In this document: piece after piece, positions 1-36,912 of the stretch
Layout: each line of letters starts with the position of its first letter
Position numbering within the stretch: the first letter of the stretch is position 1
From: Rhizaria sp. SCN 62-66
Taxonomy: Eukaryota
NCBI GenBank assembly: GCA_001724265.1
Contig: MEDY01000310.1
Coordinates: 1 to 37,296 of the forward strand
Direction of reading: 5' to 3'
Length of the DNA stretch: 37,296 nt
Made by a program: the position numbers and the translations under genes
Notes under the pieces: generated by a model
The model's database searches: none
Seen by the model: the letters and a program-made list of their open reading frames with translations, nothing else
What the model was told of the DNA's origin: nothing

Positions 1-1272
1 GCTGCTGGATGAGGTCCACGTTGCGCCCGCGGACAAGTTCTCCAAGTGCGTGCGCGTGACGCACTCGCGCTGCAAGCTTGGGCTCACGGCCACGCTTGTG
101 CGCGAAGATAGCAAGATCGAGGACTTGTACTTTATGCTGGGTCCGAAGCTCTACGAGGCCAACTGGAAAAACCTCAGCACGCAGGGCTTCATCGCGACGG
201 TGATGTGCCGCGAGGTGTGGTGCCCCATGTCGCCGCTCTTCTTCCGCGAGTACCTTGGTGCCGACACGCACAAGAAGCTGCTGCTAATGACGCTAAACCC
301 GGAGAAGTTGATGGCCATGGAGGTCCTCATGCGCGCGCACGAGCGTCGCGGCGACAAGATCATGATCTTCTGCGAGTCAATCGTTGCGCTGCAGCTGCTG
401 GCAAAACGGTTCAAGCGGCACTTTATTGACGGCACCGTGGCCGACCAGGAGCGCGTTGAGATCTTCCGCGAGTTCTCTTCCAACAATGGGCTCAACACTA
501 TCTTTATCTCCAAGGTCGGTGACAACTCGATCGACCTGCCCGACACCAACGTCATCATCCAGCTCTCCGCGCACTTCGGCTCGCGTAGGCAGGAGGCGCA
601 GCGCTTCTGATGTTTCGCTGTTCTTCAAAATTTGGCATTGTAATGTTCAACAAAGTATCATGTTTGTCCAAGTGTGTGTTGAACTCTCCAGTCTGACATT
701 ATTCACAAATCACATCATCACAGTTTTCTTCTTACTCCATCCCCTTGCTTTCTTGTTTTCTCCTCCGCCTCACAGGCCGCATTTTACGCCCGAAGTCTAA
801 GAAGTCAGGCACAATTGACGCGTACTTTTACTCGCTTATTTCGACCGACACGAGCGAGGTCAAGTACGCGACCAAGCGCCAGCGCTTTCTGGTCGACCAA
901 GGCTACGAGTACGAGGTGATGCTCAAGTCCGAGCTCGACCACTAGGAGCGCGCCGCTATCGTGAAGGAGCCGCTCATCCTCTCGAAGCCTGAAGACCAGC
1001 GCATGCTTTTGCTCGAGATCCGCGAGCATCAGGGCCCCACGGGCGCCTACGACCTGAGCGAGATGGCCGTCTTCGAAGCCACCGCCTCGCGCGGCTTCTA
1101 GTCCCGCCCCAGCGTCGCCGCCCCCACAAGCACAGCCACTCACACCGGTACTGGTGCTGGTGCTGGTGCTGGTACTGGCGCGGACGGCGCAGAGGAGGAG
1201 ACAAGCGAAGCCATGCTGGCCAGTCTCACCGGCGCTCGCGGCGGCGGCGAGCGCATCTTCAGGGAATACTGA
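1..1272 (+). CDS. ERCC3: TFIIH helicase/translocase XPB (Ssl2/Rad25), 5' partial; exons <1..~607 and 776..1272; two in-frame TAG codons (943-945, 1099-1101)
   Basis: The frame from base 2 reads LLDEVHVAPA (motif II), LGLTATLVRED (motif III), GPKLYEANW, SKVGDNSIDLP and HFGSRRQEAQR. After a pyrimidine tract and CAG at 775 it reads RILRPK...AYFYSLISTDTSEV...RQRFLVDQGY. Reading through two TAGs gives an XPB-like C-terminus (EDQRMLLLEI...MLASLTGA...IFREY) ending at TGA 1270-1272. The intron donor near 607 is not canonical. Confidence 0.95.
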
Positions 1273-2986
1273 AGGAGTGATTTCGTATTCAAGAGAGTTG
1301 TGGGTTCTGCATCACATATTACAACATACTAGTACTAGTATAATTTTGGAGATATAAGAAGCAGCATGATATATAGCCTATGTGTACATATCTGACTTTG
1401 CTTTAGTCCATGAAAAAATGTAATCTTTAATGCCGAACGTATGTTTGCGAAAGAACATATGTCCAGTTGTTCTATTGTGACTGCGGATCGATTTTGAATG
1501 AGCTATCTAATCATGAGCTATCACAAAATACGTTTCAGAGTTTTAACACTCGAGTGGCCCACCAAAACTTGTTGCGATTAAACCCGCGCGTAAGCGCAAA
1601 AGAGGCTGTAACTCAGCAACGTTATGAATGCCAATCGACTTTGCGAAGTGAAAAACAATATGTATTGAAGTGAAAAATAATTGTTAGTGCAAAGAAGATA
1701 AAGAATGCGAAGAAAATATATGTAGACGCAGTGCATATGTGCAACAGAGATATAGAGAACACAGAAAGATGCTTGAGGCTTAAATGTCAACAACAACACC
1801 AAAAAAAAAAGAGGAGGAAGAGATAAAACTACAAACAGAAACCACATCAAAAAAGATGAGCAGGCAAAAAGAAAACAAACAAAATAAAGAAGTATGCATG
1901 CACACAATCACAGAAACGCATGCACACGTATTGCAGATGAATCAGAAACTGTCGGTGTGGTCGTCGTTGTTTGGTGAGTGTGGATGATGGTGGTACGAGT
2001 ATGTAGCGATGCTGCTTGCGGCGGCCGAGAAAGGCGCACGAAACGTCGTCAGAGGTCGCAGAGCAGCGCGCACAGCGGGGTCGCCGAGGCGGCAAAAGCA
2101 GGAGCAAATACGTATCAATGACAGTGGCAGTCGTTGGAGCAGGCGTAGTGTAGCCAATAAGAGATTAGTGAGAAGAAAACGCGCGACGTAGACATTATCT
2201 CAAGCTGCAAAGCTGTCATGGAATGACCAAGTGCGTGATGTCATGTAAGGTGACGGAGTTGGAGCAGGTGTGCAAAGGTGTAGGTACAGAAATGCAGTCC
2301 TAATATCAAATGCATGCATCTGCTAAAAAAATGAGAGTTGTTGTGGTGATTGTTCAGAGTGTAAAGCGATAGCATTGTCAATGAGAGATTTTTTGTAGAT
2401 GTTAGTGTGGAATGTTGCTGCTCATGTGTTGTTGAAGCCAAACGATCCGCGGAGGTTATGCTACGTTCGTTGACACACAAACACGATTCTGGCCGCCACT
2501 CAGGCAGGCTTCTTGCTTTCTGTCTGGCTGCCGGCCTGCTGTGTGTTGCGACATGTACTGCTGCGGAAAGCAGTGTCACGACATGAGGCGCGGATCACAA
2601 GAAACAAGAACAAAAAAAAAGGTGTGCGGTCGATAGACGGGCGAGACAGGACAGGTCAAAACTAAATGGAACCAAACAAGGAAAGCAAAATGGGAAAAGT
2701 AAAAAGGAAACACAAAGCAAAAACAAAAGACGAAAGAAAAAAAGGACGTGGTGCGACATAAATAAAGGAGAAGCACACGCACGGACAAGGTTTTCTATCG
2801 TTGTCGTCGTTGTTGTTGAATGATGATTGATGAGTCGGTTTGTTGGGGAGGAAAGGGGAAGAGGCGCGCCGTGGGGCCCGCCAGCAAGACTAGTCTGAGT
2901 CTTCGCTGTAGTATTCATGGACATCAACAGAAACAGAAACAGGAACAAGGACGTTCAATGCATTCTCAACATGACGCGCTAAAGAC

Positions 2987-7668: not shown

Positions 7669-9228
7669 TCAGTACCACTGCTTGCGCTGGGTCTCGCGCT
7701 GAGGCGGGAGGGCGTCGACGCGCTCGCCGCCCTTGAAGACGGCGGCGACGGGCGAGGCGCCCATCTGGTACACGACGTGTTCCCACTGCTCCGTGCCCAG
7801 CACCACAAAGTCGCCGCGCTTGCCGGGCGCAAGCGAGCCGTGAGAGCCGGCCTTGCCGAGCGCGTAGGCGGCGTTGAGCGTGGCGGCGACGAGCGCCTCG
7901 CCGCAAGTCATGTGCATGAGCACGCAGGCCATGTTCATCACCAGCGGCAGCGCGATGCAGTACGCGTTCGGGTTGAAGTCGCTGCCCAGCGCAACGGGCA
8001 CGCCCGCCGTGATCATCGCGCGCGCGGGGGGCGGGTGCAGGCGCAGTACGTAGGCCGTGGTGGGCAACAGCACGGCCGCGACCTTGGCCGCGGCCATGGC
8101 GGCGATGCCCGCGTCCGTCACGCACTCCAGGTGCGACACGGCGCGTGCGCCCACGGCCGCCGCCATCTCGGCCGAGTGCGTCACCGAGAGCTCGTCGCCG
8201 TGGAAGTTCGCCTGCAGGCCCAGCGCGCGGCCCGCCTCGAGGATGCGGCGCGCCTAGACAGAGCGAGAGAAAAGAAAGAGAAAAAAGGAATGATAAAGTT
8301 CATGCATGAGTGAATTTTTGACAATACAAAAATAAAATGACACGAAACAGCTAAAATCGTATTGCTGTTAAGCTATAGCTTGATAGCGTCTGATATGTGT
8401 AGACATATCTATGGCCCGTACCTGGTCGACGTTGAAGACGCCCGACTCGCAGAAGACGTCGATCTGCTCGGGGTCAATCTCGCCGGCCGCGGCAGCCGCG
8501 GCGAGGCGCGGGAGCTGCACGCTGACCACGTCCTCAGTCGCCGCCTCAGCCGTGGAGCCCTTGGGGACGGAGTGCGCGCCGCAATAGTTGGCCACCAGCT
8601 CGATGGGCTGCAGCGCCTTGGCGCGCTTGATCACGCGTAGCATCTTGAGCTCCGCCTCGGCCTCCAGCCCGTAGCCACTCTTGGCCTCGAGCAGCGTCGT
8701 CCCGGCGGCCAGCGCGCGCGCGAGGCGGCCCAGCAGCGCGTCGAGCAGCTCGTCCTCCGAGGCGGCGCGCGTGTGGGCCACTGTGAAGCCGATGCCGCCG
8801 CCCATGGCGTGGATGTCCATGTACTTGGCGCCCGCAAGCTTAAGGCGGAACTCACCGACGCGGTCGCCCGCCCAGACGGGGTGGGTGTGCGCGTCGACGA
8901 GCCCCGGGATGACGGACTGGCCGGGGAACGCGTGGTCGTGCTCGGGTGCGAAGGGGAACTTGGCCAGCTCGGCCGGCAGCTCGGCCGCGGGGCCCGCGTA
9001 CAGGATCGAGCCGCGGTCGCCAATAATCAGCGCGCCGTCGGACACGCAGTCGACGTCGTCCTGCGCCGTGCCCGTCTTGAACTCGACGGCGCGGTCGCGG
9101 GAGATGCACACGAGGCGCGAGGCAGTCACGCGCACGCGAGGCTGCTCGGGCTGCTCCGACTGCGCGGGCTTGGTCTGCGCCGCCGAGGGGCAGCAGGCGG
9201 GGGTGCCGGCGTGAGGCGCGCACGACAT
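7669..9228 (-). CDS. AMDHD1: Imidazolonepropionase (histidine catabolism, HutI family, eukaryote type); exons 9228..8422 and 8253..7669
   Basis: Motifs PGLVDAHTHPVWAGDR, GGGIGFTV, EAKSGYGL, GAHSVP, DVFCESGVF, FHGDEL, SHLE and ALGSDFNPNAYC. GTACGG...TAG intron 8421..8254 in phase 0. Stop TGA. Confidence 0.95.
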
Positions 9229-9712: not shown

Positions 9713-11854
9713 ATGTCTTCGCTCGACGACATCGTTATCCAGCCCATGGAGGATGTGGCCAAGGCCGGCGCCGCCACCGCGTCGTCGGACGTGAAGCAGG
9801 TCCAGATCCGCTTCAAGCCCTCACCCTCGGCCCCGCACTTGCCTGTGGCGCCCGAGACGTCGTTCTCGGTTCCGGTGAACTTGGCACGCCTGGGCCTGTC
9901 GGAGCTACTCAACCACGTCCTGGCGCAGAAGCCCGCGCGCCCGTTCGAGTTCCTCATCTCGAACCGCTTCCTGCGCACCTCGCTGGAGCGCTACCTGACT
10001 GTGAACGGGCTCAGCGGCGAGGCGGAGCTGCAGCTGGAGTACATCGAGGCGCTGCCGCCGCCCGAGAAGGACACCTCGACGCCGCACCCCGACTGGATCG
10101 CGGACGTCGACGCGCGCGTCGGCGCCGGCTTCGCGCTGCTCCCGCTGCCCGCCGCGCAGCCTGACGCCGCCGACGCCAAGAAGGGCAAGAAGGCCGTCCC
10201 GGCCGCCGCCGCAACCGCGGGCCTCGTATCCGCGCAGCCCGCGACGTTCTCGGTCACGGGCTGCTTCGACGGCGTGGTCCGCGTCTGGGCACACCCCGCT
10301 GACTCGGCCGCCGCCGCCGACGCGGCCGCCGCGCCCGCGTGCGTGCTGGCCGGCATGGGCGCGGGCCACCTGGCGCCCGTCAAGGCCGTGCGCGTGCTCC
10401 GCCCCACGCTGCACGACGCCGCCGCCGTGGCCGCCGCAGCGTCGGTGGGCGCGGCCGAGGGTCAGCTCGCGCTCGACGCCGCCTCGGCGCTGCTTGTGTC
10501 GGCCTCGCAGGACCACTCGCTCCGCGTCTGGGAGTTTGCCTCCCCCGCCGCGCCCGCCGCGGGCGCCGACGCGGCCGCCGCGGCCCTGGGCCAGCGCCCT
10601 CGCGCGCCGCGCCCGCTGGCGTGCCGCGCCGTGTGCGACTTCCACACGGGCACGGTCGAGTGCGTCGAGACGCTGCTGACCGCGGCCCAGGCCTCAGGCG
10701 CGGGACTCTCGCTCGCGGGCCGCGTCGCCGCGCCGCGCTTTGTGTCGGGCGGCTTTGAGGGCTCCATCGGCGTGTGGACGCTCTCCAACGACTACCTGAT
10801 CGACGAGGACGAGGTGGCCGCGCAGGTGGCCCTGGTCAAGAAGAGCATGGGCCGCCAGAACGGGCCGCGCCGCCTCACGCCCGGCGTCGCACTCGTCACC
10901 GGCGCCGAGGACGGGACTGGCGACGACGCCGGTGCTGCCGGCGACAAGAAGGGCGGCAAGGCCAGCAAGCGCGCGCGCACGGCCAACGACGACGCGAGCG
11001 GCGACGACGACGACGACGAGGACGCGGAGGAGAAGGGCGACAGCGTGAGTGCGCTCAAGAAGACGCCCTACGCGAGCGTGGCGCACTACCGGCCTGCGTC
11101 GGCGTTTGTGGGCGGGCACAAGTCGGCCGTCACCACGCTCTGCTGGCCGCACGCGCAGCACCTCTACTCGGGTTCGCTCGACTGCACCGTCAAGCACTGG
11201 GATCTCGCCCAGGTACGATCATAACTAACCACGCACATAACTCGCGAATATAACTGAAGTCTCTCATTACAATATCTCTATTTGTATCATCATTTCATCT
11301 GCAAATCTCTCACATCTATACTTGTACTCCTCCCCCTTCGTTCTCCTCCGTCGCAGGGCACCCCCGTGCACACGTGGTCGGGCGGCCACGCCGTCCTGCA
11401 CGTGGACTTCTCGCCCGCGCTGAACCTGCTCGCCTCGGCCGAGCAGGACGGCGCGGTGCGCCTCTGGGACCCGCGCGCCGCCACGGCCGCGGGCGCCGTC
11501 GGCGGGCTCACCACGGCCCCGCGCGGCACGCTCAAGGCCTCGGACGCGTGGTGCGTCCGCGCGCGCTGGGCGCCCGCGGCTGTGGACCTGCCGCACGTGC
11601 TCGCCTCTGTCGGCTACGACGGCGCGGTTAAGTTCTGGGACATCCGCTCGGCCAAGCCGCTGCACGCGGTCAAGACGACGAGCGAGCGCCTCATGGGGCT
11701 CGATTGGGTGCCCGTCTCGGACGACTTTGTCGAGCAGCGCGCCGCCTCTGCCTCGGCCGCCACGGGCGCCGCCACGGTCAAGGCCTACGCGCTGGCCGGC
11801 GGCACGGGCCGCGTGCTCGACCGCGTCGCCTGGACGCTGCCCGTGCACGAGTGA
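9713..11854 (+). CDS. WDR12: Ribosome biogenesis protein WDR12/YTM1 (NLE ubiquitin-like domain + WD40); exons 9713..11212 and 11357..11854
   Basis: The N-terminus QVQIRF...FSVP...GLSELLNHVL...PFEFLISNRFLRTSL...LEYIEA..PP...PHPDWI is typical of YTM1. WD repeats follow (YSGSLDCTVKHWD, VRLWDPR, SVGYDGAVKFWDIRS). GTACGA...CAG intron. Stop TGA. Confidence 0.92.
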
Positions 11855-13709: not shown

Positions 13710-14443
13710 TTACGCGAGGGCGACGCCGGCCTGCATCTTCTTCTGGACGTCGGCGCCGGTGCCGGCAGCCATGGGCGGGATCGGCGGGACGGGCGAGAGC
13801 ATCTTCTTGCGGAACTCGTCCTGCGTCATGTCCGCGAACTGGTTCACGCCCATCTTGAACGAGCCGTTGTTGGCGTTGTTGCCGCGGATCTTGTCGAGGT
13901 TCTCGCGAAAGATCTTGAAGCGACGGGGCTTCTCATCGGGGGTGTACATCTTCTTGAAGCGGTCGATGAACTTCTTGAACTCTAAACAACACGGAAGGAG
14001 AAGAAATGAAGAGAGGGGAAAAGAGGATACAGAGAAACAAATGTGAGCGCGATTGCAGATATTAAGCGAACTAAAGCAATAACAGCGGTAAAAGATTAGA
14101 AAATACGATGACAACCGAGAGCAGCGCGAGCAGCTCGGGTGGAAAGCGGGGGAAAGCAGGGCAACGTACCGCCCTTGTAGTCGGGCTTGGCCGTGGGGTT
14201 GTCCTCAGCGGCAGGCGCAGAGGGCGCAGAGGGCGCGACGGGAGCCTCGGGGGCGGCGGGGACCGCAGGGGAGGCCGGGGCAACGGGCTCGGCGGGCTTG
14301 GCGTCGGCGACGGGCGCGGGGGGCGCGACGGGGGCCTCGGGGCCGCCGACGATGGGGGCGGGCGGCGCAGGCGCGATCACGACGGGCTCAGCAACGGCCA
14401 GCGCTGCAAGGCACGCCAGCACAAGAAGCAGCAGCTTCATCAT
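13710..14443 (-). CDS. Secreted protein: signal peptide + Pro/Ala-rich linker + cathepsin propeptide inhibitor domain (I29), no protease domain; exons 14443..14170 and 13981..13710
   Basis: MMKLLLLVLACLAALAVA is a signal peptide. EFKKFIDRFKKMY..DEKPRRFKIFRENLDKI...FKMGVNQFADMTQDEF contains ERFNIN-like and GxNxFxD motifs. Phase-1 GTACGT...TAG intron. Stop TAA. Confidence 0.85.
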
Positions 14444-18099: not shown

Positions 18100-18969
18100 T
18101 TAAGAGCGGTCGACGAGGATCTTCTGGATCTGCTGCATCTTGCCCAGCAGCTCCTTAACCTTGGCCTTATCCATCTCGAACTGCAGCGTCGACGCTGCGC
18201 CAGACTCGTCGTGCGTCTAATGAAAACAAGGACAAAAACAACAATCGCAGCGAATATGCAAAGAAGGATGACATTGGAGTGAGAATAAGTTGGGTGATTT
18301 GAAACAAGACAAATCGATAAAGTGTGTTGTTGGCGCCAAGTAAACAAAGCGCGTACCTTGAGCTGCATGAGCGCGACGGGCTCCATCATGCCGGCCTCGT
18401 CTGCGCCATGCTGCTGCTGCTGCTGCGCGCCGGCGGAGAGGAGGTCGACGCGCCAGTTGACGCCCTCGAGCGTGTTGTTCCAGATCGAGCGCTGGACCAG
18501 GAACTCGTGCGCGGTGGCCTGCTCGGCCTTCCACACCTTGGCCCAGGCCGCCGTGTCGGCGTCAGCCGTGACGCCCAGCGCGGCGAGGTGCGCGGATAGC
18601 TCCTGCCAGCCCCAGGCCTGCGAGGCGGCGTGACGGAACACGGCCGCGTACTCGGCCAGCAACGCCTGCACCTCGCCCAGAGACTTGTCGGGGAAGACAG
18701 AGTCCTTAACGTCCGCCGCGGTCACGCCGGAGTCCTTGTAGAAGCTGCGGGGCGCGTGGGGCGGGGCGGAAACGAGCGGGTTGGGATGAAAGAGGGGGAA
18801 AGCAAGTGTGAGGGTGGGAACGGACAAGATTTGAAGAGGTTAGTGAATAGTCTATAGTGTGTGGGCAAGCTAGGCTAAAAAATGGGAGAATTACGTACGT
18901 GATCTTGCAGACACCGTTCAGGAAGGCAAAGAGGAGCTTGCCATTGAGCTCAAGCGGGGTAAGGCTCAT
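18100..18969 (-). CDS. COMMD1: COMM domain-containing protein 1; exons 18969..18899, 18744..18357 and 18216..18100
   Basis: The spliced product GKLLFAFLNGVCKITFYKDSGVT...VFP...KVWK...SIWNNTLEGVNWRVD...PVALMQLK...LQFEMDKAKVKELL parallels COMMD1 (GKPLSGLLNAL...SRWN...SWRVD). Two canonical introns. Stop TAA. Confidence 0.88.
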
Positions 18970-19400: not shown

Positions 19401-22400
19401 ATGCCTCCAGGTACGTTATTTGTTCAGCACCTATTAAGACCACGATTTGGCCTGTATAGTCGTCTTATTTTCTTCCAAAAAGAGCCTTTTTTGATGACCC
19501 GCTCTGTTTTGTACCTACTCTCCCGCCCGCACAGCTCGCGCGCCCCCCCAGGGCACCGTGTATCGCATTCTGCGAAAGATAGTATGCTCAAACGTTGACT
19601 GCCAGTGCTGCCTCGCCTTCGAGGACATCACAGGCGCTCGTATCAATGCCAAGGTACGCTATAGTGCTTCTGAAATTGCACAGTAGCCTCCGTTTAATCT
19701 AATCCACATGCCTTTTCTCCTTTTAGTTCCGCTTTAACCGCGATATATCCCCGTTTCGCGTCGCACACTGTCACGCCCACTCACCTCTCCTGTTCCATCC
19801 AACCTCTGTGTTCTCGGCCTCTCTCGCCCTCATCCTTGTCGTCTTTGCTCTCCGGGCCCATCCGCCCGCGTGCAGAACAACTACACGAGCTTTTCGATCC
19901 GCTGCCCCACGTGCAACACGTCGACCTCGACGACGACGATGTACATGGAGCGCATCATGGAGGCCAACCCCAAGGCCGCGGCGGCGATGAAGGACAACAA
20001 CGCTGCCTTCGATGGGCTCGTCGCCGCCCCCGTCGCGCCCGGCATGTCGGCCCTGCAGCAGGAGATGGAGTTCGTGTCGCTGCCGAAGCGCTGCTCGTGC
20101 TCGGGCTCGATCGACCGCGGACGCATGGTCACCTGTTCCCACGACCTGCCGCCCGACGAGACGCGCCCGCCGCACTGCACGTCGGACGCGCTGCGCCACA
20201 TTTGCCTCACGTGCGACCGGCGCTTCTGCGATGCGTGCTTCACCAACTACCACGAGAACCCCGAGTTCGAGATGTGTCTGCACGTGCCGTACGCGCACTT
20301 CTTGTGGATGCAGCGCATCTTCCTCATCGTCGCCAAGCGCGACGCGAGCGAACAGGTCCGTTGCTCCGTGCTGGCCGAGGCCGGCAGCCGCACCAACAAC
20401 GAGCTGGGTCGCACCATCCAGCGCCTCATGATCAAGGAGATGACTCAACTCGGCCGCGCCCACACCATCTCGCTGCCCGACCTGGCGCTGCTGTACGCCT
20501 ACGACCTGCGCCGCGTGCGGCTAAGCACTGATACCGAGTCCGAGAAGATCATCGAGGACTTCCACCGTATGGGTTGCTGCTCGCGCTGCTTATACGACAC
20601 GGAGCTCTGGTGCCGCTTCTCGCGCCACACGTCGCGTTTCCCGCTGTGCCGCACCATCATCGGCTCCGTCGAGGCCGTCCACGGCGGCAGCATGGCCAAC
20701 TACTTCAGATCCTTCCGCTGGTTCCTGTTGCTCAACCTCGCGCTGTCGATCATCCTTTTTGTCTTCATCCTGCTGCCCGCCATCTACGACGGGCCCAAGT
20801 CCATCGACGCGCGCGCGCTGTTACTCGGCGACGGCGCCGCCAACTCGGTCTTCTTCTACGGCGGCTACGTGTCCATCTACGACTTCGGCTGGCACATGGA
20901 CACCGGATGGGTGCTTATCCTCGCCGCGATCCTTTTCTTCTCGCTCTTCTTCATCGTCTTCTCCTTCGACTCTGAGGCCATTGCGCAGACCGAAGACTCG
21001 TCCATCTCTTCGGAGCACCCCTTCACCGCCGTGCTGGGCTCCATCAACTACAATGAGCGCGACCCCGCGAGACTCAACCAGGTGCGTCGCTGGCAGATCA
21101 CTGCAGAAATCTCTGCCAAGTTGACATTTTTTAATGGAAAAGTGCATCTATATAGAGTTTTTTTTATAATTCATTTCGATGTTATTTGTTTTTATTCTCC
21201 TAAACTCACATCTATGCTCTCTATTCTCATATGGCTAACTTTTCCGACAGGAGATCCACGCGCTGGCGACGCGGCTGGACATCCTTGGCATGACGCACCT
21301 GTGGGTTGCGCAGACGCGCGTGAACGAGCGCACGCGGCCCTGCTGCACGGGCCCCTGCGACCCCTGGTACGTGTGGTTTCTCATCTCCATGTCCTGGATC
21401 GGCGGCGGCACCGCGCTCGTGTGGTTTGCCGCAGACTGGCTCGACCCTGTCGACGGGAAAATCGCGCAATACGCGGCCGACGTGGACCCGCGGCTGTGGC
21501 AGTACGCGTCCGTGCTGTTCCCGCTTGCCGTCGCGCTGCTCAAGTTCATAATGCCGCCCTTCATCCGCTGCTGCGTCGTCCGTGAGTTCTCGCCCTTCTA
21601 CTACAAGGCCGACCACGTGCGCGCCGCCTACTTCTTCCGCCTCTTCCTGCAGCGCATGGCCGTCGCCGCCATGGTCATGTACATCTTCCTCACGCAAGCC
21701 ACGCCCGCCTTCACGCCCTCGGCCACCAACGCCATGGCGGCCGCCGCGGGTGCCGCGGGCTGCGCATGCCCGCCGGGCGCGACTTGCGCGACGACGGCTG
21801 ACTGGCAGTGCCCGTGCCAACAAACCGAGATCGGCATCCGGCTATACCGCTTCGTCGTCATCGACCTGGCGTGGTCCTTCATCCTCGCCATCCTCTGGTC
21901 GCCGTTCAAGTACTGCCTGCGCTCGTGCTGCGTGCGCTGCGGCTGCGGCAACTGCGTCGACTCGAGCCACCGCTACACCTTCAACCGCGACGTCGACTAC
22001 GCTTTGAAGAACAGCATCACGCAGCGCATGCGCGAGCAGCGGAACCGGAACGAGTTCGACCCGCTCGAGAACATGCTGGACCTCGTCTACCGGCAGGCGT
22101 TCATCTGGTCGGGGATGATTTACTCGCCCATGATCCCCGTCGTCGGCTTTATCTGCTCGCTCTTCCTGTTCATGTTCAAGCACATGGAGGTCACTCTGTG
22201 CTCACGCCGCAGCTGGATGTCGCAGTTGCCCGCGACCACGCAGGAGGTATACTTGCTCTTCGCGCTGCTCGCCTCGGCCATCCTGGCCTTCTTCCCGCTC
22301 TCCTTCTTCATCTCCTCCTCCACGGTCTGTGGGCCCTTCTGGTGGTCGCACGTCGAGGGCATGAGCATCTGGGAGGCGTGGTTCCAGATCACGCAGGGGC

Positions 22401-22627: not shown

Positions 22628-24348
22628 ACTAAACAAACCGCGGCGCAGGCTCGGTCTTGTTGGACGCATTCAAGCGAAACGAAGTTGTTCCTGTGCAGCT
22701 GTCTATGTATGCATATTTCTCTTCTTTTTGTTCCGCTTTTATCAGCGAGCAAAAAGAGTGTGTTTTGCTTGTTATTTTTTGACCTAAACAAGCTCTGTGT
22801 TTGTGTTTGTGTGTGTTCGGTTTGTTTGTCTCTTGCTTTTTGTATATCGTTTCACTTTTTTTAACGATTTTGTTTTTCGTTTTCGATTATTTTTTGAAAG
22901 ATGTAACCTGTGTGTGATATTCTTTGGTATTAGCTTTGTTATGTTTGGCTGTAGTTTAGTTTTCATTCTTGCTTTTTCTACCATTCCTCATCTTTCCTAC
23001 GCCAACTCAATTCTGCAGCTACTGTTGTTGACGCTATCGTTGTCGCCATCAACGTCTTGATCTCTGTTTTCACCCTGCACGCGCTGTCTTCTCGCTAAGG
23101 ACAAGACGTCGAGCAAGGGGGTGTCACTCTCAGTGTTGCCGGTTGCAGCTCCCAGTCAGCTAACCAAAGCTCCAAGCTCAACTGTGCTTTGATATCGTCA
23201 TGATATGTTATTTCATGTTGTACTTTGTTAAGCTTGTCTGACTGTGAATCTTTATTGAAAACCTTCATCAGTATCATTGCCGATACTGTTGATTTGTTGT
23301 CACTGTCACTAGCTCTGTCACAACGACAACTCATCAGGCACGCTGTTGTTGATGTTTGAATGAATCATAACTTATCTCGATTATCATATGCTTTATTTTG
23401 TGTTTCATATATTTTTCGTATTTTTTAGTATGCGCTTTGACCAATTCGTGGATTATCACTAAAATGAACGTGTCGTATCTCGAGCCTCCCTCAAGCACGC
23501 GCATGCGCGAACGCACTGTTTGTTGTTGTGGCTTGCTTGGGTGTTCGAATTCAGTCACTCTCCTCCTTTCTTAAACTCGTCGCTCTTATTGCATTGCGCA
23601 TCACTGTGTCTGTATGAATATACATGTATAGCGCTGTAAATGTGCTGCGCTGCGTTGAACTGTGCTCTATGTGTTGTCTGTCTGTTTGTGTGAGCGAGCC
23701 ACCATTATGTGCTTTTCAGCGAATCACCGGCTCGCACGCTCTTTCAGCTGCACAGTTACAGTCACAGCCACAGTCGTCCAACGCAGCTCGCGTGTGTTGA
23801 TCGCGCGTGTCGCACGCGCTGTATCACCAGCACCGCGCACCGGCGACGCTTGAGCAAGCATGAGCACTACCGTTCCCTCCTTAATTCTTTGCTCCGTCCT
23901 ATCACCAATCCATTTGATAAGACACGATAGTCGTGTGGTACAAAATGGCATACAAAATGATGAAATTCGTCAACTAGAACTGTTTTTTGTCTTATCTGCG
24001 TATCATGCAATTTACCTGCTGTAGCATGGTTGACTGGCCATGGTGGGCCGAAAAAATCTCGGGGTGAAGAAGCTCGCAGCTGGCGCCGGGTCAGAGGCGA
24101 TTACGTTTCGGCTTTTTATACCAAAATGAAATCGTCAATTGTTCTGGGGTGAATATATTCCACATATTTCTGACTTTTCTCTTTGCTTCAATCTTTTACA
24201 CTCTATTAAATGAACCGCACGACCCTGATCAGAACGAAACCCAAGGCCTAGATCGCCCCCTCTCCGTTAACGAAACTGTCTCTCACTATCCTCCTCTAAC
24301 CAACCTCATTTCGTCTCCCCCACGTCCCATCATAACAGGTCTAGCACC

Positions 24349-26565
24349 ATGGCCAGCTTTCAAGGCGAGGTCATTGACAGCGTGCACATGGGCCACGCGG
24401 ATGAGCGTGAGCAGGCCGAGAACGCCCTGCGCTTCGGTGCTCACCGCGATCCCAGCCAGGCCAACGAAGGCTTCCGCAACTTCATCCGCAACTTCAAGGA
24501 CGCATCGGGCCAGTTCATCTACCGCGACCAGCTGTTAGCGAACTTTGAGCAGGGCTCGTACTTCCTCCGCGTCGTGCTCGACGACCTCCACACCTTCGGC
24601 TCGTGGCTCCGCAGCGCGCTGATGGAGAGCCCTGAGGTCTACATGCCGCAGTTCGAGCTCGCGGCGTGCCAGGTCATCGCCACCACGCCCGCCACGCGCC
24701 GCGACATCAAATCCGTGCAGCACATCCAGATTGTGCTGACGGGCCAGGCCGCGCCGACGCCGCTGCGCAACCTCGAGTCAGCGCAGGTCTCCCAGCTCGT
24801 CGCGCTGCAGGGCATCGTCATCGGCGCCACGCGTCCGCGCGTCAAGGCCACGCGCCTCGCCCTGCGCTGCCGCGGCTGTGGCGCCTCCCGCTTTGTTGAG
24901 GCGCGCGGCGGCTTTGGTTCGATCCAGCGCCCGCGCCGCTGCGAGGCCGGGCAGCTGCAGGAGGGCGCGGCGCGGTGCCCGCTTGACCCCTACGAGGACG
25001 TGCCCGAGCACTGCGAGTTCGTTGACACGCAGATGCTCAAGCTGCAGGAGCCGCCGGAGTCTGTGCCGACGAGCGAGATGCCGCGCCACATGACGCTGTC
25101 GTGCGAGCGCTACCTGGTGAACAAGGTGAAGCCGGGCACGCGCGTGACGGTGCTGGGGGTGCACTCGACCTACTCGGCGCGCGTGTCGGACCGCAACATG
25201 AACAACATCAGCGACTCAGGCATCCGCATCCCGTACTTGCGCGTCGTGGGCATCGACCAGAACAGCGAGGCCAACGACATCCTGCTGGGCAAGCTGACGC
25301 CTGAGGACGAGGAAGAGCTGCGTCAGCTCGTCGCGCAGCCAGACATCTACGACAAGATCGCTAACTCGATCGCGCCCGATATCAAGAGCCACGACGACAT
25401 CAAGCGCGCCATCGCGTGCTCGCTCTTTGGCGGCTCGCGTAAGTCACTGCCCGACGGCATGCGGCTCCGTGGTGACATTAACGTGCTACTGCTCGGCGAC
25501 CCCGGTGTGGCCAAGTCCCAGTTCCTCCGCTTTGCGCACGAGGCGGCGCCCATCTCGGTCTACACCTCTGGCAAGGGCTCCTCCGCGGCCGGTCTGACGG
25601 CCTCGGTGGTGCGCGACCCGGGCACGGGCGAGTTCCACCTCGAGGGCGGCGCCATGGTGCTGGCCGACGGCGGCGTCGTCTGCATCGACGAGTTCGACAA
25701 GATGCGCGAGCAGGACCGCGTCGCGATCCACGAGGCTATGGAGCAGCAGACCATCTCCATTGCTAAGGCCGGCATCACAACAATCCTCAACTCGCGCACC
25801 TCGGTCATCGCGGCCGCGAATCCCGTCTTCGGCCGCTACGACGACTACAAGTCCGCGACGGAGAACATCGATTTTCAGGCCACGATTCTGTCGCGTTTCG
25901 ACCTCATCTTCATTATCCGCGATCTTCAGGACTTGCAGCTGGACCAGGCGCTCGCGCAGCACGTGCTCCGCGTGCACAAGCGCGAAGGCAACGCCGCGCC
26001 GCAGCTCGCCGAAGGGATCATTCCTGTGGAGAAGCTCAAGAAGCTCATCGCCTTCGCGCGCCGCAAGGCCCCGCGCCTGACCGAGGACGCGGCCGAGCTG
26101 CTGAGCAACCGGTACGTGCACTTCCGCCGCGAGCTCGAGGAGAAGCGCCGCGCGTCAGCCGACGGCACGGCCTCGGTGATCCCGATGACTGTGCGCCAGC
26201 TCGAGGCTCTGGTGCGTATCTCTGAGTCGCTAGCGCGCATGGAGCTGAGCGACGTGGCCACTGAGGCGCACGTTGAGGAGGCGCTGCGCCTCTTCAAGGT
26301 CGCCACGATGCAGGCCGCGTCGTCGCCCTACGGCGCGGCGCCCGGCACGGCGCAGTTCGAGGACCAGCTGCGCGCGTGCGAGGCCGCGATCAAGGTGCTA
26401 GTGCCCTTCGGCGCCACCACGCGCACGGCCGAGGTGCTGCGCGCGCTCATGAGCCAGCAGAACTTCAGCGAGAGCGTCGCCAAGCGGTGCCTTGAGATTC
26501 TTGTCACCAGGGGCGAATTCAAGTACCGCGAGCAGAAGAAGCAGATCTCGCGCGACAGGAGTTGA
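24349..26565 (+). CDS. MCM5: DNA replication licensing factor MCM5, intronless CDS
   Basis: Motifs RCPLDPY, LKLQEPPESVPTSEMPRH, RGDINVLLLGDPGVAKSQ, LEGGAMVLADGGVVCIDEFDKMREQDRVAIHEAMEQQTISIAKAGITT, TILSRFD and TVRQLE. Stop TGA. Confidence 0.97.
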   Translation: MASFQGEVIDSVHMGHADEREQAENALRFGAHRDPSQANEGFRNFIRNFKDASGQFIYRDQLLANFEQGSYFLRVVLDDLHTFGSWLRSALMESPEVYMPQFELAACQVIATTPATRRDIKSVQHIQIVLTGQAAPTPLRNLESAQVSQLVALQGIVIGATRPRVKATRLALRCRGCGASRFVEARGGFGSIQRPRRCEAGQLQEGAARCPLDPYEDVPEHCEFVDTQMLKLQEPPESVPTSEMPRHMTLSCERYLVNKVKPGTRVTVLGVHSTYSARVSDRNMNNISDSGIRIPYLRVVGIDQNSEANDILLGKLTPEDEEELRQLVAQPDIYDKIANSIAPDIKSHDDIKRAIACSLFGGSRKSLPDGMRLRGDINVLLLGDPGVAKSQFLRFAHEAAPISVYTSGKGSSAAGLTASVVRDPGTGEFHLEGGAMVLADGGVVCIDEFDKMREQDRVAIHEAMEQQTISIAKAGITTILNSRTSVIAAANPVFGRYDDYKSATENIDFQATILSRFDLIFIIRDLQDLQLDQALAQHVLRVHKREGNAAPQLAEGIIPVEKLKKLIAFARRKAPRLTEDAAELLSNRYVHFRRELEEKRRASADGTASVIPMTVRQLEALVRISESLARMELSDVATEAHVEEALRLFKVATMQAASSPYGAAPGTAQFEDQLRACEAAIKVLVPFGATTRTAEVLRALMSQQNFSESVAKRCLEILVTRGEFKYREQKKQISRDRS

Positions 26566-27711: not shown

Positions 27712-30700
27712 TCACTCGGAGTCGTCGGAGTTGGTGCTCGAGTCCCACTCGCCACTGGGCTCCTCGTCGCTCTCGTGCTCCTCCTCAGCCTCCTCGGCGG
27801 CGTCCTCGGCGGCCTTGGCCTCGGCGTCAGTAGCACCCGCGGCGGCGGCGGCGGCGGCGGCGGCAGCAGCCTGCTTGCGCGCGATGCGCTCACGGCGCGC
27901 GAGCTTGCGCTTGACGGAGCCGGAGGAGAAGGCCGACTTGAAGCCCGTCTGCTGGTCAAGCTCGCGCGCGCGGGCCGCAATCTCGGGCTTGGCCTCGTCA
28001 AGCGCGGCGAGCCAGCGCGCCGCCATGTGCTTGCGGCGGCCGCGCGTGAGCGGCCACACATCGTCGAAGTTGGACTCGTTGACGTAGTTCTGCGTGATGG
28101 CAAGCGTGTCATCGAAGTTCCACACAGCGTGCCACCAGTTGCCCGGCACGAAGATGGTCTCGCCGGGGTAGTGCACGGCCTCGTACATGACGTAGTCGGC
28201 GCCCGCCGCGTTGGCCGACGCGATGTACTCGCGCAGCCGCGGCAGGATGTGCGTGAACCAGCCCTGTGGCGACGTCCAGGGGGACGGACCCTCGCCCTTG
28301 TACCGGTGCTCAAAGGCCGAGCCGTTGGCGATAGACGCGGGCACGTTGGGCGAGAGCAGCAGCCAGTACTTGCGGCCGTGCAGCAGCGCGTTCCACGCGT
28401 TGGTGTTGAGCGGGTCCTTGTGCATGAAGGAGCCCGAGCCCTGTGCGCCGATGCACAGCCAGCGCTGCGGCGGACGGCGCGAGAAGGCCACGTGGTCGAG
28501 GAAGTCGGTGGTGAAGAAGTGGGGGCGGGTGTAGTCCTGCTGCATCTCGGTCGCCACGTCGATCACCTCGAGCTGCGACTCAAACAGGTACAGTGGCTGG
28601 TCGTCGCGCTCCGTGTACAAGTACTGCATGAAGTGCTTGAGCTTGGCAGTCAGGCGGTACTCCTGGGGGTCCTTGCCGACCTTGAGGCGGCAGTTCTTGT
28701 ACTTGCCCGTGGACAGCGTGGTGCCCGTGTACTTGTGCATCTCCCAGCCCTCGGTCATGCCCGAGATGAGGCACGGCAGCAGCGCGCGCTCATACGCCGC
28801 CTGGAACTCGCCGTACGACATGTCCTTGTAGTTGAAGCGCGGGATGGGACGGAAGCGCGAGAAGTCCACCGGCGTAATCTCCTTGCTGCGGCCGCGCGGC
28901 ACCGACGCCACAGCGGGCAGCGCCGCGTCGGGCTTGAGCTGCGCCAGCGCCGAGTAGGCCGCCGAGGACTTGGGGAAGACGTAGACGGCCTCGCCGCCCA
29001 TGGGCGTGGCCAGCCCCTGGAGCGCGGCAAAAGCCTCAGGCAGCAGCACCTGCTTGAGCCCCGCGGCGGGCGTCGCGTCCACGGGCCGCGTCACATGCGC
29101 GTCGCCCACGAACGGGTTCACGGGCGCGTCCAGCGGGCCCGCGGCGACGGCGCTGCCCGGCGCGACGCGGCAGTGCGCGGCTTCGACCAACGCGCCCCAG
29201 CGCGCCAGCGCAGCGCGCAGCAGCGGGATCTCGGAGGCGTATGAGAACTTGTCCCAGTCCTTGAGGCCCCAGCGCGGCTCCTTCTTGCGGCGCAGCACGT
29301 TGAAGATGGCGTCGATGTCGCTCTGCTTCGACTGCGGCACGTAATCGCGCAGGAAGGTCCCGTACACGGCGTCGCGCACGGACCCAGGCTGAATAGACGC
29401 GTTTTCAGACTGCACCTCACTTGCGCGGGCGGCGGCGTCGCTGCTCCCCTATGTGTCTGAGTCGGCCTCGGCCGCGGCGGCAGCGGCGGCCGCGGCCTTG
29501 GACTTGGCGGCGTCGGCGGCGTCGACGTCGTCGTCGCTCTACTCGTCGTCGGAAGACGCGTCCGAGTCGGTGGAGCTGTCCTCGTTGCCCGAGAAGCCCT
29601 CCCAGCCCTCGTACGCGAAGGGCTTTTTCTCCGGCTCCGCCGCCCAGTCGCCGTGGTTCAGCGGGTGGTTGCGCGCGCGCTCCTCAGCCGCGGCGCGCTC
29701 CTCGGGCGACATGAGCTCCAGCGGCTTGACTTTTTTGCCGCTCGCGTCGAGGTGCGGGCGCACGAACTTCCACACGAAGCCGTCCTTGGCGTTCATCGCG
29801 TGCGCGGCCGCGGCGGCCTTGGGGAAGCGCTTCTCGAGCATCTTGAGCCAGCGCCAGGCCATGTGCTTGCGCTCGACGCGGATGTCGCGCCACACAAGGG
29901 GGAAGTTGCTCATGTTGACGTAGTTTTGCGTCACGGCGTAGGTGTCGTCGAGGTTGATGACGAAGTGCCACCACGAGCCGGGCACGAAGATGGTCTCGCC
30001 GGGGTACTGGATGAACTCCTGCAGCCCGTACTTGTTCCCGTTGGCCATGATCCACGCGCGCAGCTTCGGGTACACGCGGTCGTACCACCCCACGCCCTCG
30101 TTCTCGATGTCGGGGTCGAGGTCCTCGTCGGCCCAGAACTGCTTGCCCTTGACGATCGCCTCGGGTGTCTCGGGCGGGAACAGGATCCACACCTTGCGGC
30201 CGGCGATGACGGTGTTCCACGCGTTGGTGTTGAGCGGGTCGATGTGCATCGTCGTGCCAGAGCGCTCGGGGCCCAGGCACAGCCAGCGGTGCGGCGGGCG
30301 CCGCTCTGCGCTGCAGTAGTCGAACAGGTCCTTGGAGAACCACGCGGGGCGCGCGTACTCGGCGAAGATCTTGCGGATGTTGGAGTTGGCGTTGAGCTGC
30401 GACTCGAAGAGGTAGACGGGCGAGTCGTCCTTCTGCGTCGCCGCGTACTGCAGGTAGTACTTGGTCTCGAGCCCGATGCGGTAGCCCTCGTCGTCCTTGC
30501 CCACCTTGACGCGCTCGTCGCGCAGGAACGACTGGTTCATCGTCGCGAAGGTCGCCTTATTGATGGGCCACTCGTCGGCGAAGCCGGCGATTAGGCAAGG
30601 CTTGGACGGCTTCTCGTACTTCTCCACGAACCACTCGTACGAGACGTCGCGGAAGTCGAAGCGGTCGACGCCCATAACGCCGTGGTAAGTCGAGCCGGCG

Positions 30701-31026
30701 ACGTGGCACGCCTCGATCTCGTGCAGCACCTTAAGCCACTCGGCGCGCTTGTTGCGGAACGTCTTGACGTAGCCGTACTTGTGCCAGTCAGAGGGGCGCA
30801 TCGAGGACTTGCGGCGCTTGACATCGAGCAACTTGGCCTCCACCACCTCGGGGTCCTGGTCCGGCACGTAGTCGCCCTTGAGCGTGTCGTAGTGGCCGTC
30901 CTTGTCGGGGAAGCGGTGCGGGAAGTCGGCCGGGTTGAGGGCCGCGTTGCGCGCCTTGAGCTTGGCGACGAGCTCCTCGCGCGAGTGCGTCTCGCCCGTG
31001 GTCAGCTCGTACGGGTCGTAGGACAT
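27712..31026 (-). CDS. JMJD6-like JmjC oxygenase with two tandem JmjC modules in one frame (1104 codons if TAG at 29539-29541 and 29449-29451 is read as sense)
   Basis: ORFs 29539..31026 and 27712..29415 are each JMJD6-like (VKVGKDDEG / LKVGKDPQE; DDSPVYLFES; RRPPHRW; SGTTMHIDPLNTNAWN / SGSFMHKDPLNTNAWN; PGETIFVPGxWWH; xTQNYVN). They share a frame and are separated by 123 nt of GC3-biased codons. The second ORF has no ATG before its conserved N-terminus. Final stop TGA. Confidence 0.85.
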
Positions 31027-36067: not shown

Positions 36068-36140
36068 GCCGTCGTAACTCAGTCGGTAGAGTGTTCGGCT
36101 CTTAACCGATTAGCCGCGGGTTCGAGCCCCGCCGGTGGCT
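36068..36140 (+). tRNA. tRNA-Lys (anticodon CTT)
   Basis: 73-nt cloverleaf: acceptor GCCGTCG/CGGTGGC, D-arm ACTC/GAGT, anticodon loop CTCTTAA, T-loop TTCGAGC, followed by a T-run (Pol III terminator). Confidence 0.95.
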
Positions 36141-36205
36141 TTCTTTTTTTGCTTCTTTTCTCAAACGTAAGCAAGTTGTACAAGCATGTACAACAAGCAC
36201 TCCAG

Positions 36206-36278
36206 GTGGCTTTAGCTCAGATGGTAGAGTATGCGCTTAGCATGCGCGGGGCAGGGGGATCAATGCCCCCAAGCTACA
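36206..36278 (+). tRNA. tRNA-Ala (anticodon AGC)
   Basis: Acceptor GTGGCTT/AAGCTAC with G3:U70 and A73, loop TTAGCAT, eukaryotic Ala-type T-loop ATCAATG, downstream T-run. Confidence 0.93.
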
Positions 36279-36342
36279 CATATCTTTTTGTTCGTGCTTG
36301 TTCTGTCACGTAACGAAGTGCAACAACGACGCAATTTGGCAG

Positions 36343-36415
36343 GCCGTCGTAACTCAGTCGGTAGAGTGTTCGGCTCTTAACCGATTAGCCGCGGGTTCGA
36401 GCCCCGCCGGTGGCT
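36343..36415 (+). tRNA. tRNA-Lys (CTT), identical copy
   Basis: Same 73-nt sequence as 36068..36140, followed by a T-run. Confidence 0.95.
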
Positions 36416-36507
36416 CTCTTTTTTGTGTAAGTTCGTTCTGCTCTTACGCTTGTTCGACGAACAAGAACGACAGCGTCAAGTTGTTGATCGAGTTAGTTAA
36501 CAGCAAC

Positions 36508-36580
36508 GTGGCTTTAGCTCATATGGTAGAGTGCGTGCTTTGCAAGCATGAGGCAAGGGGATCGATGCCCCTAAGCTACA
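36508..36580 (+). tRNA. tRNA-Ala (anticodon TGC)
   Basis: Same acceptor stem with G3:U70, anticodon arm CGTGC-TTTGCAA-GCATG, T-loop ATCGATG, T-run. Confidence 0.93.
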
Positions 36581-36639
36581 CATCTCTTTTTGTTCATGTC
36601 ACTGATGTACTTGTTCCTGAGTGTAACACCCTGTCAGCA

Positions 36640-36712
36640 GCCGTCGTAACTCAGTCGGTAGAGTGTTCGGCTCTTAACCGATTAGCCGCGGGTTCGAGCC
36701 CCGCCGGTGGCT
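36640..36712 (+). tRNA. tRNA-Lys (CTT), identical copy
   Basis: Same 73-nt sequence, followed by a T-run. Confidence 0.95.
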
Positions 36713-36839
36713 CTCTTTTTGTTCATGCGTATTATGATGTGATTGCAAGCAACAAGTGGAAGCGTGTTCGATTCGATGTGACGTTCCAACCAAGGTCATG
36801 TCGAGGAGTCTACACGACAAAGCAGGTTGATTGACAGCA

Positions 36840-36912
36840 GTGGCTTTAGCTCAGATGGTAGAGTATGCGCTTAGCATGCGCGGGGCAGGGGGATCAATGC
36901 CCCCAAGCTACA
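36840..36912 (+). tRNA. tRNA-Ala (AGC), identical to 36206..36278
   Basis: Identical cloverleaf, T-run downstream. Confidence 0.93.

Follow-up and report, generated by a model that had tools for sequence, protein, structure and literature searches.

The question raised by the beginning of contig MEDY01000310.1 (assembly GCA_001724265.1) is how an XPB/ERCC3 helicase gene could be translated to its conserved C-terminus when its last exon is interrupted by two in-frame TAG codons. The window, by which we mean the whole stretch analyzed (37,296 nt, positions 1-37,296 of the contig, forward strand), starts inside this gene and carries further downstream a second interrupted gene, a tandem JMJD6-like open reading frame (ORF) that also contains two in-frame TAGs. 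The TAGs are real and lie in frame within coding-like sequence of both genes, and the nuclear code of the source organism probably reads UAG as glutamine, with UAA and UGA as terminators.

The first XPB exon of the window (2-604, + strand; pos mod 3 = 2 for the first letter of each codon) encodes helicase domain 2, with Pfam matches to PF16203 ERCC3_RAD25_C (E 5.6e-60) and Helicase_C (E 4.2e-12) and a GC content at third codon positions (GC3) of 0.86. It is followed by an AT-rich intron remnant (605-775, +) that ends in CACAG at 771-775, with the acceptor AG at 774-775; GC at 601-800 is 0.42 and the codon scores of the intron are negative in every frame. The last exon (776-1272, +) contains the end of the helicase core, an EQ..LL helix, a low-complexity stretch and the terminal LASLTGARGGGERIFREY motif, and it matches PF16203 (E 1.4e-20) as well as the structures of human XPB and yeast Rad25 (E about 1e-10 to 1e-11). 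Its first whole codon is at 778 and, when 778-1272 is read with TAG as X, residues 56 and 108 are X: RILRPK...QGYEYEVMLKSELDH (ending in ELDH)-X-ERAAIVKEPLILSKPEDQRMLLLEIREHQ...ASRGF-X-SRPSV...(GGT GCT)n...LASLTGARGGGERIFREY-stop, the (GGT GCT)n low-complexity stretch standing ahead of the end motif. TAG 1 (943-945, +) is residue 56 and TAG 2 (1099-1101, +) is residue 108. The TGA at 1270-1272 (+) is likely the true XPB terminator, the sequence beyond it being AT-rich (downstream score -11.0, GC 0.38) and the ORF of a close relative stopping at the same residue. GC drops from 0.645 at 1101-1300 to 0.345 at 1301-1500, and GC3 is 0.88 between the TAGs, 0.66 beyond TAG 2 and 0.30 in the 3' flank. 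Retranslation of the exon agrees exactly with the initial annotation, which had given the same exon, the same two TAGs and the same TGA end, and had placed the onset of AT-rich composition only past 1272, where it is indeed found.

Coding signal continues past the TAGs. In a codon-usage model trained on the other genes of the window, without XPB, the 51 codons between the TAGs score +37.1 bits in frame, while the other five frames reach at most +8.1 bits and four of them are negative; together with the GC3 of this segment, this bears out the earlier claim of a coding-biased frame beyond 943-945. The segment past TAG 2 scores -2.4 bits, yet this is the best of its six frames, and its last 27 codons score +8.2 bits. 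Homology likewise extends beyond position 945, the absence of which the initial annotation had named as fatal to its proposal. The Pfam match to ERCC3_RAD25_C on the last exon covers residues 1-85 and hence spans TAG 1, and human XPB structures align to residues 2-83, reaching human residue 717 of 782; compared with human XPB, 7 residues are inserted around TAG 1. In an alignment, 12/12 XPB C-termini match at the EQ..LL helix and at the end motif SL..L.G....Y.E(Y/F), which lies beyond TAG 2, with L78, G155 and E163 invariant; the aligned orthologs were chosen among matches reaching into the tail, a choice that favours a match. The 56 residues past TAG 2 score 8.9 bits against a hidden Markov model (HMM) of 10 other XPB C-termini, a value reached by 0/500 shuffles, while the 51 residues between the TAGs alone give a non-significant -1.2 bits with the same HMM (reached by 67/500 shuffles). 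Pfam searches with the between-TAG piece and the post-TAG-2 piece, each alone, gave no match. Thus the helix and end motif predicted by the initial annotation were recovered, and the exon does run through both TAGs to a conserved XPB C-terminus.

The TAGs themselves were checked with Logan contigs of four public runs (X2, X4, X5 and X6) placed on window positions 1-1500. One contig of X2, a bioreactor run of 2015, extends over 910-1315 (record 7) with 0 differing letters, and two contigs of X4, a 2017 wastewater run of another study, cover 910-1035 (record 14) and 1082-1315 (record 15), again with 0 differing letters each. These runs hold no further contig on 910-1315, so that depth there is that of a single contig. 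Records exist of the ORFs that end at the TAGs: P0293 on 4 contigs and P0026 on 6. Both TAGs thus recur unchanged in contigs of two other studies, which excludes the base-call errors that the initial annotation had allowed for. At the (GGT GCT)n stretch (1147-1183) very deep unrelated contigs are found in the RNA runs, with a summed depth up to 48822 in X5; depth at these positions is uninformative on XPB, because the repeat draws unrelated contigs.

The same contigs revealed an anomaly upstream. At 601/602 (+), the junction of the XPB exon and intron, the window lacks 17 nt (CGCCTCGGTACGCATAA) that contigs of other samples carry: CGCCTCGGTACGCATAA is inserted behind 601 in one X4 contig, and two X2 contigs, one of them otherwise identical to the window, begin at 602 with 22 unmatched letters that spell the same insert. 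With the 17 nt the exon ends in ...QRLG and the intron starts as G|GTACGC, like other introns of the window, and helicase motif VI reads QRLG|GRILR across the junction. The window itself, lacking them, gives QRF-TGA and no proper splice donor, so that XPB as given is not correctly spliceable; the missing nucleotides hold the LG codons of motif VI and the GTACGC donor. Their loss reflects an assembly error or else a private deletion; it is not tied to the TAGs, which are also found in copies whose junction is intact. A reversed (CT..AC) or U12-type intron that would rescue QRLG was dropped as a candidate, since the missing 17 nt supply a normal donor. Within 602-939, run X2 contains two haplotypes or strains over the intron, and X2 and X4 both carry an exon variant whose differences from the window (807, 813, 816, 837 and 900) all fall on third codon positions.

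Which amino acid might be inserted at the TAGs is suggested by a close relative. When the exon, with TAG as X, was searched by word index against 5.8 billion proteins, 23 matches among 769 candidates were obtained, the best being P0003, a 114-aa metagenome ORF (E 1.6e-47). BLASTP aligned the exon to P0003 with 86/117 identities and with glutamine opposite both X, in the contexts ELDY-Q-ERAAIV (TAG 1) and RGS-Q-SRPGV (TAG 2). The 90% cluster of P0003 has 3 members: P0003 itself; P0294 (172 aa), which is the whole last exon of the relative as one uninterrupted standard-code ORF, from the intron-derived MLSCFFLRLTG to RIFREY; and P0293 (66 aa), which is the window's own ORF ending at ELDH. Since the ORF of the relative is uninterrupted, the tail is coding sequence in the sister lineage. 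The 55 residues upstream of TAG 1 are identical in window and relative; in the tail 16/94 residues differ, with one in-frame 3-residue gap and the same RIFREY end. Diverged X5 contigs fit the relative (e.g. 1250 A>G, giving GGGG-RIFREY). Both XPB TAGs therefore stand at glutamine positions of the relative (2/2), one transition from CAG, and these are not deeply conserved sites. Scans of metagenome contigs with P0003 and with the window/relative alignment produced 597 and 124 pattern matches, 0 of them confirmed, and the 73 pattern matches in prokaryote genome contigs were not confirmed either.

A second gene behaves in the same way. The JMJD6-like double ORF (27712-31026, - strand; TGA end at 27712-27714) holds two JmjC units in one frame, with two stretches each of Pfam JmjC and Cupin_8 and matches to JMJD6 structures (E 5e-73), and in full it has a codon score of 1019.8 bits. 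The units are 44% identical to each other through the JmjC core (E 1e-90) and are joined by an Asp/Ala-rich linker, ...SSDDE-TAG-SDDDVDAADAAKSKAAAAAAAAAEADSDT-TAG-GSSD..., with a GC3 of 0.95; this linker is not AT-rich in the way that most other intergenic stretches of the window are. When 20 codons on each side of a stop codon were scored with a model trained without XPB and JMJD6, the first TAG (29539-29541, -), which stands behind the ...SSDDE of unit 1, had flank scores of +20.7 upstream and +19.6 downstream, with a downstream GC3 of 0.95, and the second (29449-29451, -), within the linker, had +13.2 upstream and +4.2 downstream. Homology to the N-terminal part of unit 1 starts in unit 2 only 9 codons past TAG 29449-29451 (E 5e-06), while the first Met of unit 2 is at residue 150, so that unit 2 has no start codon ahead of its conserved sequence. 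With the standard code, therefore, no translation product of unit 2 could include the conserved N-terminal part. Units 1 and 2 have weakly similar ends (SGNEDSSTDSDAS vs SGEWDSSTNSDDS, E 0.027), and for this reason TAG 29539-29541 may be a former terminator of unit 1. An intron excising both TAGs was also considered and rejected, the sole GT..AG candidate being 94 nt long (not a multiple of 3), with GC 0.74 and without a GTACG donor. A search of 8000 candidates (609-1941 aa) gave no relative of the linker; unit 1, looked up by exact match, returned only itself, and two guessed unit-2 ORFs were not on record.

The four TAGs were then set against every stop codon of the window. Among all stop codons in six frames, both 20-codon flanks exceed 8 bits only at TAG 943 and TAG 29539, and at 0 TAA and 0 TGA. 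The 20 codons past the four TAGs score +12.7, -2.7, +19.6 and +4.2 bits, against -30.0 to +0.7 past 14 terminators (Mann-Whitney U = 55 of 56, exact p = 0.00065); upstream, the flanks of TAG 1 and TAG 2 score +22.0 and +19.3. The 14 modelled gene ends are TGA in 8 cases, TAA in 6 and TAG in none. In 7302 coding codons, CAG occurs 208 times, CAA 9 times and TAG 4 times, so that TAG makes up about 1.8% of the glutamine codons; a fifth TAG in the count is an intron acceptor, and the in-frame TAGs fall in 2 of about 14 genes. Pairs of same-frame ORFs split by TAA or TGA are explained by AT-rich introns with GTACG-type donors. The introns examined (e.g. 11213-11353, 8290-8421 on the - strand, 21070-21247 and 18217-18356 on the - strand) mostly have GT(A/G)CG donors (GTACGA, GTACGG, GTGCGT, GTACGC, GTACGT), are rich in AT and in pyrimidines, and in most cases have CAG at their end. 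No convincing ORF surrounds a weak in-frame TGA at 2115 (-), which was discarded.

If UAG is read as glutamine, XPB would be translated through both TAGs to a normal C-terminus and stop at TGA 1270-1272, and both JMJD6-like units would be made as a single fusion protein. By analogy with Iotanema spirale, in the sections of PMC5304391 and PMC9161772 drawn on here, UAG would be decoded by a tRNA-Gln with anticodon CUA and eRF1 would no longer recognise UAG; the eRF1 gene does not lie within the 37-kb window. A wider scenario may be offered only tentatively, and we regard it as rather doubtful: a protist lineage as yet unsequenced, neither ciliate nor fornicate, would have come independently to read UAG as glutamine and would now be seen while it still uses this codon very little; its sister keeps glutamine (presumably CAG) at both XPB sites. 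Through the reassignment the terminator of one JMJD6 paralogue would have become a sense codon, so that two tandem genes now give one protein.

Several observations pull the other way from glutamine decoding. The evidence consists of 4 codons in 2 genes of 37 kb, and all four TAGs lie in fast-evolving or low-complexity segments, 0 of them at a deeply conserved glutamine; the number of differences from the relative (16/94) itself indicates weak constraint on the XPB tail. Past TAG 2 the score of -2.7 bits belongs to a low-complexity GT/GA stretch. The gene ends come from codon scores and inspection by eye rather than from transcripts, and the lack of TAG among them is weak evidence, the probability of 0/14 TAG ends being 0.02-0.56 depending on the assumed share of TAG. 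The upper value applies at 4%, which is the share of genes terminated by TAG in the standard-code Euthynema mutabile according to the section of PMC9161772 consulted. None of the 6 tRNAs of the window has the anticodon CUA. The polyA RNA run X6 and the RNA-labelled run X5 hold no contig from the window's organism over the TAGs or the intron; no RNA contig falls on 199-1136, and X6 is confined to 1-198 and the (GGT GCT)n stretch. Finally, an XPB copy without splice donor would on its own suggest a damaged allele.

The last point leads to the rival explanation that survives best, though we consider it unlikely: the code is standard, XPB has been cut at ELDH by a CAG-to-TAG nonsense mutation and its tail, with a second such mutation, is recently dead, while the JMJD6-like units are two genes or the second of them is dead. 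The change from CAG to TAG is the commonest route to a nonsense mutation, so that glutamine in the relative, which is what a C-to-T nonsense change predicts, fits this explanation as well; yet the two TAGs come with 0 frameshifts, TAA or TGA in 109 codons, and the sole indel relative to the relative is in frame. The tail has evolved fast, but it has kept its codon bias between the TAGs (+37.1 bits) and an intact end motif. The window copy also lacks the 17 nt that include the splice donor, but the TAGs are equally present in the X4 and X2 samples, whose copy has an intact donor, and a dead tail would have to account for the same TAGs in samples ten years apart. In the JMJD6-like ORF, the position of TAG 29539 is roughly that expected of a terminator of unit 1 (E 0.027). 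Against this, the unrelated gene shows the same pattern as XPB, unit 2 retaining its codon bias and 44% identity with no start before the conserved sequence, and the "intergenic" stretch would measure about 115 nt with a GC of 0.74, whereas most intergenic DNA of the window is AT-rich. The initial annotation had judged a pseudogene unlikely, an opinion that the continuing homology and the uninterrupted ORF of the relative, with glutamine at both sites, support. It had not extended its proposal to a code with TAG as glutamine, nor remarked on the 17 nt missing from the window copy.

Leaky or programmed readthrough of UAG under the standard code, giving short and extended isoforms, is distinctly improbable. 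A near-cognate tRNA-Gln does read UAG in standard-code organisms, as stated in the portion of PMC13192750 used, and TAG is rare in the window (4 vs 208 CAG in 7302 codons); but two successive events would be required for every full-length XPB and a further two for the JMJD6 fusion, with yields that multiply down, the conserved XPB end motif would be made rarely, and 0/14 genes terminate at TAG. It is about as improbable that TAG is a sense codon for another amino acid, for instance Leu, as in rhizarian exLh and some phyllopharyngean ciliates, or Glu. Codes with UAG = Leu exist, by the passages of PMC5304391 and PMC11687900 that deal with them, and the JMJD6 TAGs stand in an acidic or serine-rich context where no homolog was found for comparison; at the alignable TAG positions, though, the nearest relative has glutamine in 2/2 cases, and TAG and CAG are one transition apart, as expected of synonymous drift if TAG encodes glutamine. 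A sequencing or assembly error at the TAGs, to which the position near the window edge and the one anomaly of the window, the 17 nt missing at 601/602, might point, is for practical purposes refuted by the two-study contigs (X2 2015, X4 2017), identical over 910-1315, and by the repeated records of P0293 and P0026 (4 and 6 contigs).

The public runs that hold the stretch are bioreactor, wastewater and sludge metagenomes of 9 studies, and the source is most likely an uncultured, GC3-rich, intron-bearing protist of wastewater and bioreactor metagenomes. Its position was examined with the MCM5 gene (24271-26565, +; single exon, 738-764 aa). Among the matches listed, MCM5 of the window has 75% identity to one metagenome protein and at most 59% to others, its nearest database relatives are all environmental sequences, and the closest named sequences share about 48-51% identity. 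In a quick single-gene LG+G4 tree of 46 rows picked by hand from 120 listed matches, no fornicate among them, and with Shimodaira-Hasegawa-like approximate likelihood ratio test (SH-aLRT) support alone, the window groups with three environmental sequences inside a clade that holds both rhizarian rows and many unnamed rows; this clade stands apart from the opisthokont, apusozoan and amoebozoan rows, and the window is a short-branch sequence. These identities and this position mark the lineage as unsampled. By appearance it does not look like an obvious metamonad, a judgement that draws in part on general background, nor like a ciliate with gene-sized chromosomes. An MCM5 scan of prokaryote genome contigs gave 80 loci at 33-45% identity, 79 of them titled archaeal, and none was used. 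One contig in that scan (L001), binned in a Desulfosporosinus metagenome-assembled genome, has an MCM that matches residues 16-737 of the eukaryotic MCM5 query at 40% identity, and it may be a mis-binned archaeal or eukaryotic contig.

Two other features of the window may be mentioned. A tandem array of six tRNAs (36068-36912, +), spaced by about 60-130 nt, alternates Lys-CTT with Ala (AGC, TGC, AGC), the six being Lys-CTT x3, Ala-AGC x2 and one Ala-TGC. A cathepsin propeptide inhibitor domain (I29, E 3.9e-17) is encoded by an ORF at 13713-14204 (-). With no peptidase domain evident downstream, where no Pfam search was made, the ORF may represent an inhibitor on its own.

Standard-code gene callers cut the proteins of this organism at TAG, and databases hold XPB as pieces of 66 aa and 46 aa and the JMJD6 fusion as a 495-aa piece. 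If UAG is glutamine here, the organism would add a further, probably independent case, and one that is free-living, GC-rich and recurrent in wastewater reactors. The pair formed with its Q-bearing relative would also allow one to study how UAG becomes separated from UAA through changes in release factor and tRNA, and at which positions a codon turns up first once it has been captured.

Stop codons read as glutamine are the commonest nuclear reassignment, as summarised in the part of PMC5304391 consulted. Reassignment of UAG alone, with UAA still a stop, is attributed to few lineages in PMC5304391 and PMC11687900, namely exLh, Iotanema spirale and some phyllopharyngean ciliates. The code proposed for the window is of the NCBI table 15 type (UAG = Gln, UAA and UGA stops), and the window is most likely a further case in this rare UAG = Gln class of nuclear codes; no paper describing a comparable organism with this code came up in a literature search made without supplementary files.

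The closest parallel is Iotanema spirale (Fornicata), for which UAG = Gln with UAA and UGA as stops is described in the section used of Panek et al. 2017 (PMC5304391), with 204 in-frame UAG in 126 genes and UAA (104) and UGA (15) as terminators; its eRF1 is altered in the recognition of stop codons, at a GTS motif, by the corresponding part of PMC9161772. In both organisms UAG alone appears as sense, matching glutamine, and UAA and UGA end genes; UAG ends no gene in Iotanema and 0/14 modelled genes in the window, where the count is only suggestive. They differ in that TAG is far rarer in the window (4 in about 7300 codons) and TGA, not TAA, is the commoner terminator there. The window organism, moreover, is GC3-rich with AT-rich introns, and its MCM5 groups with Rhizaria and environmental sequences and is not that of an obvious metamonad.

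Among phyllopharyngean ciliates, Hartmannula sinica and Trochilia petrani read UAG as glutamine and prefer UAA as stop, as far as the section of McGowan et al. 2024 (PMC11687900) consulted reports. The likeness to the window would lie in UAG alone being reassigned to glutamine. These ciliates have gene-sized, AT-rich chromosomes, whereas the window is a GC-rich multi-gene contig of 37 kb with a tRNA array. Rhizarian exLh (Sainouroidea) reads UAG as Leu, in the part of PMC5304391 that treats it. It shares with the window a non-ciliate affiliation and, on the reading preferred here, the reassignment of UAG alone, and the MCM5 of the window falls in a clade with both rhizarian sequences; the difference is the amino acid, 2/2 positions of the window matching glutamine. 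Codes of the NCBI table 6 type, with UAA and UAG as glutamine, are found in many ciliates, hexamitin diplomonads and others, again by the section of PMC5304391 used. The window departs from them in that TAA ends 6/14 genes and never stands in frame between coding-like flanks. As to the protein itself, the window gene shares with XPB/ERCC3/Ssl2, the helicase subunit of TFIIH, the domain, the EQ..LL helix and the terminal Y.EY motif, and it differs in a tail that bears two TAGs, the 7-residue insertion at TAG 1 relative to human XPB and the (GGT GCT)n stretch.

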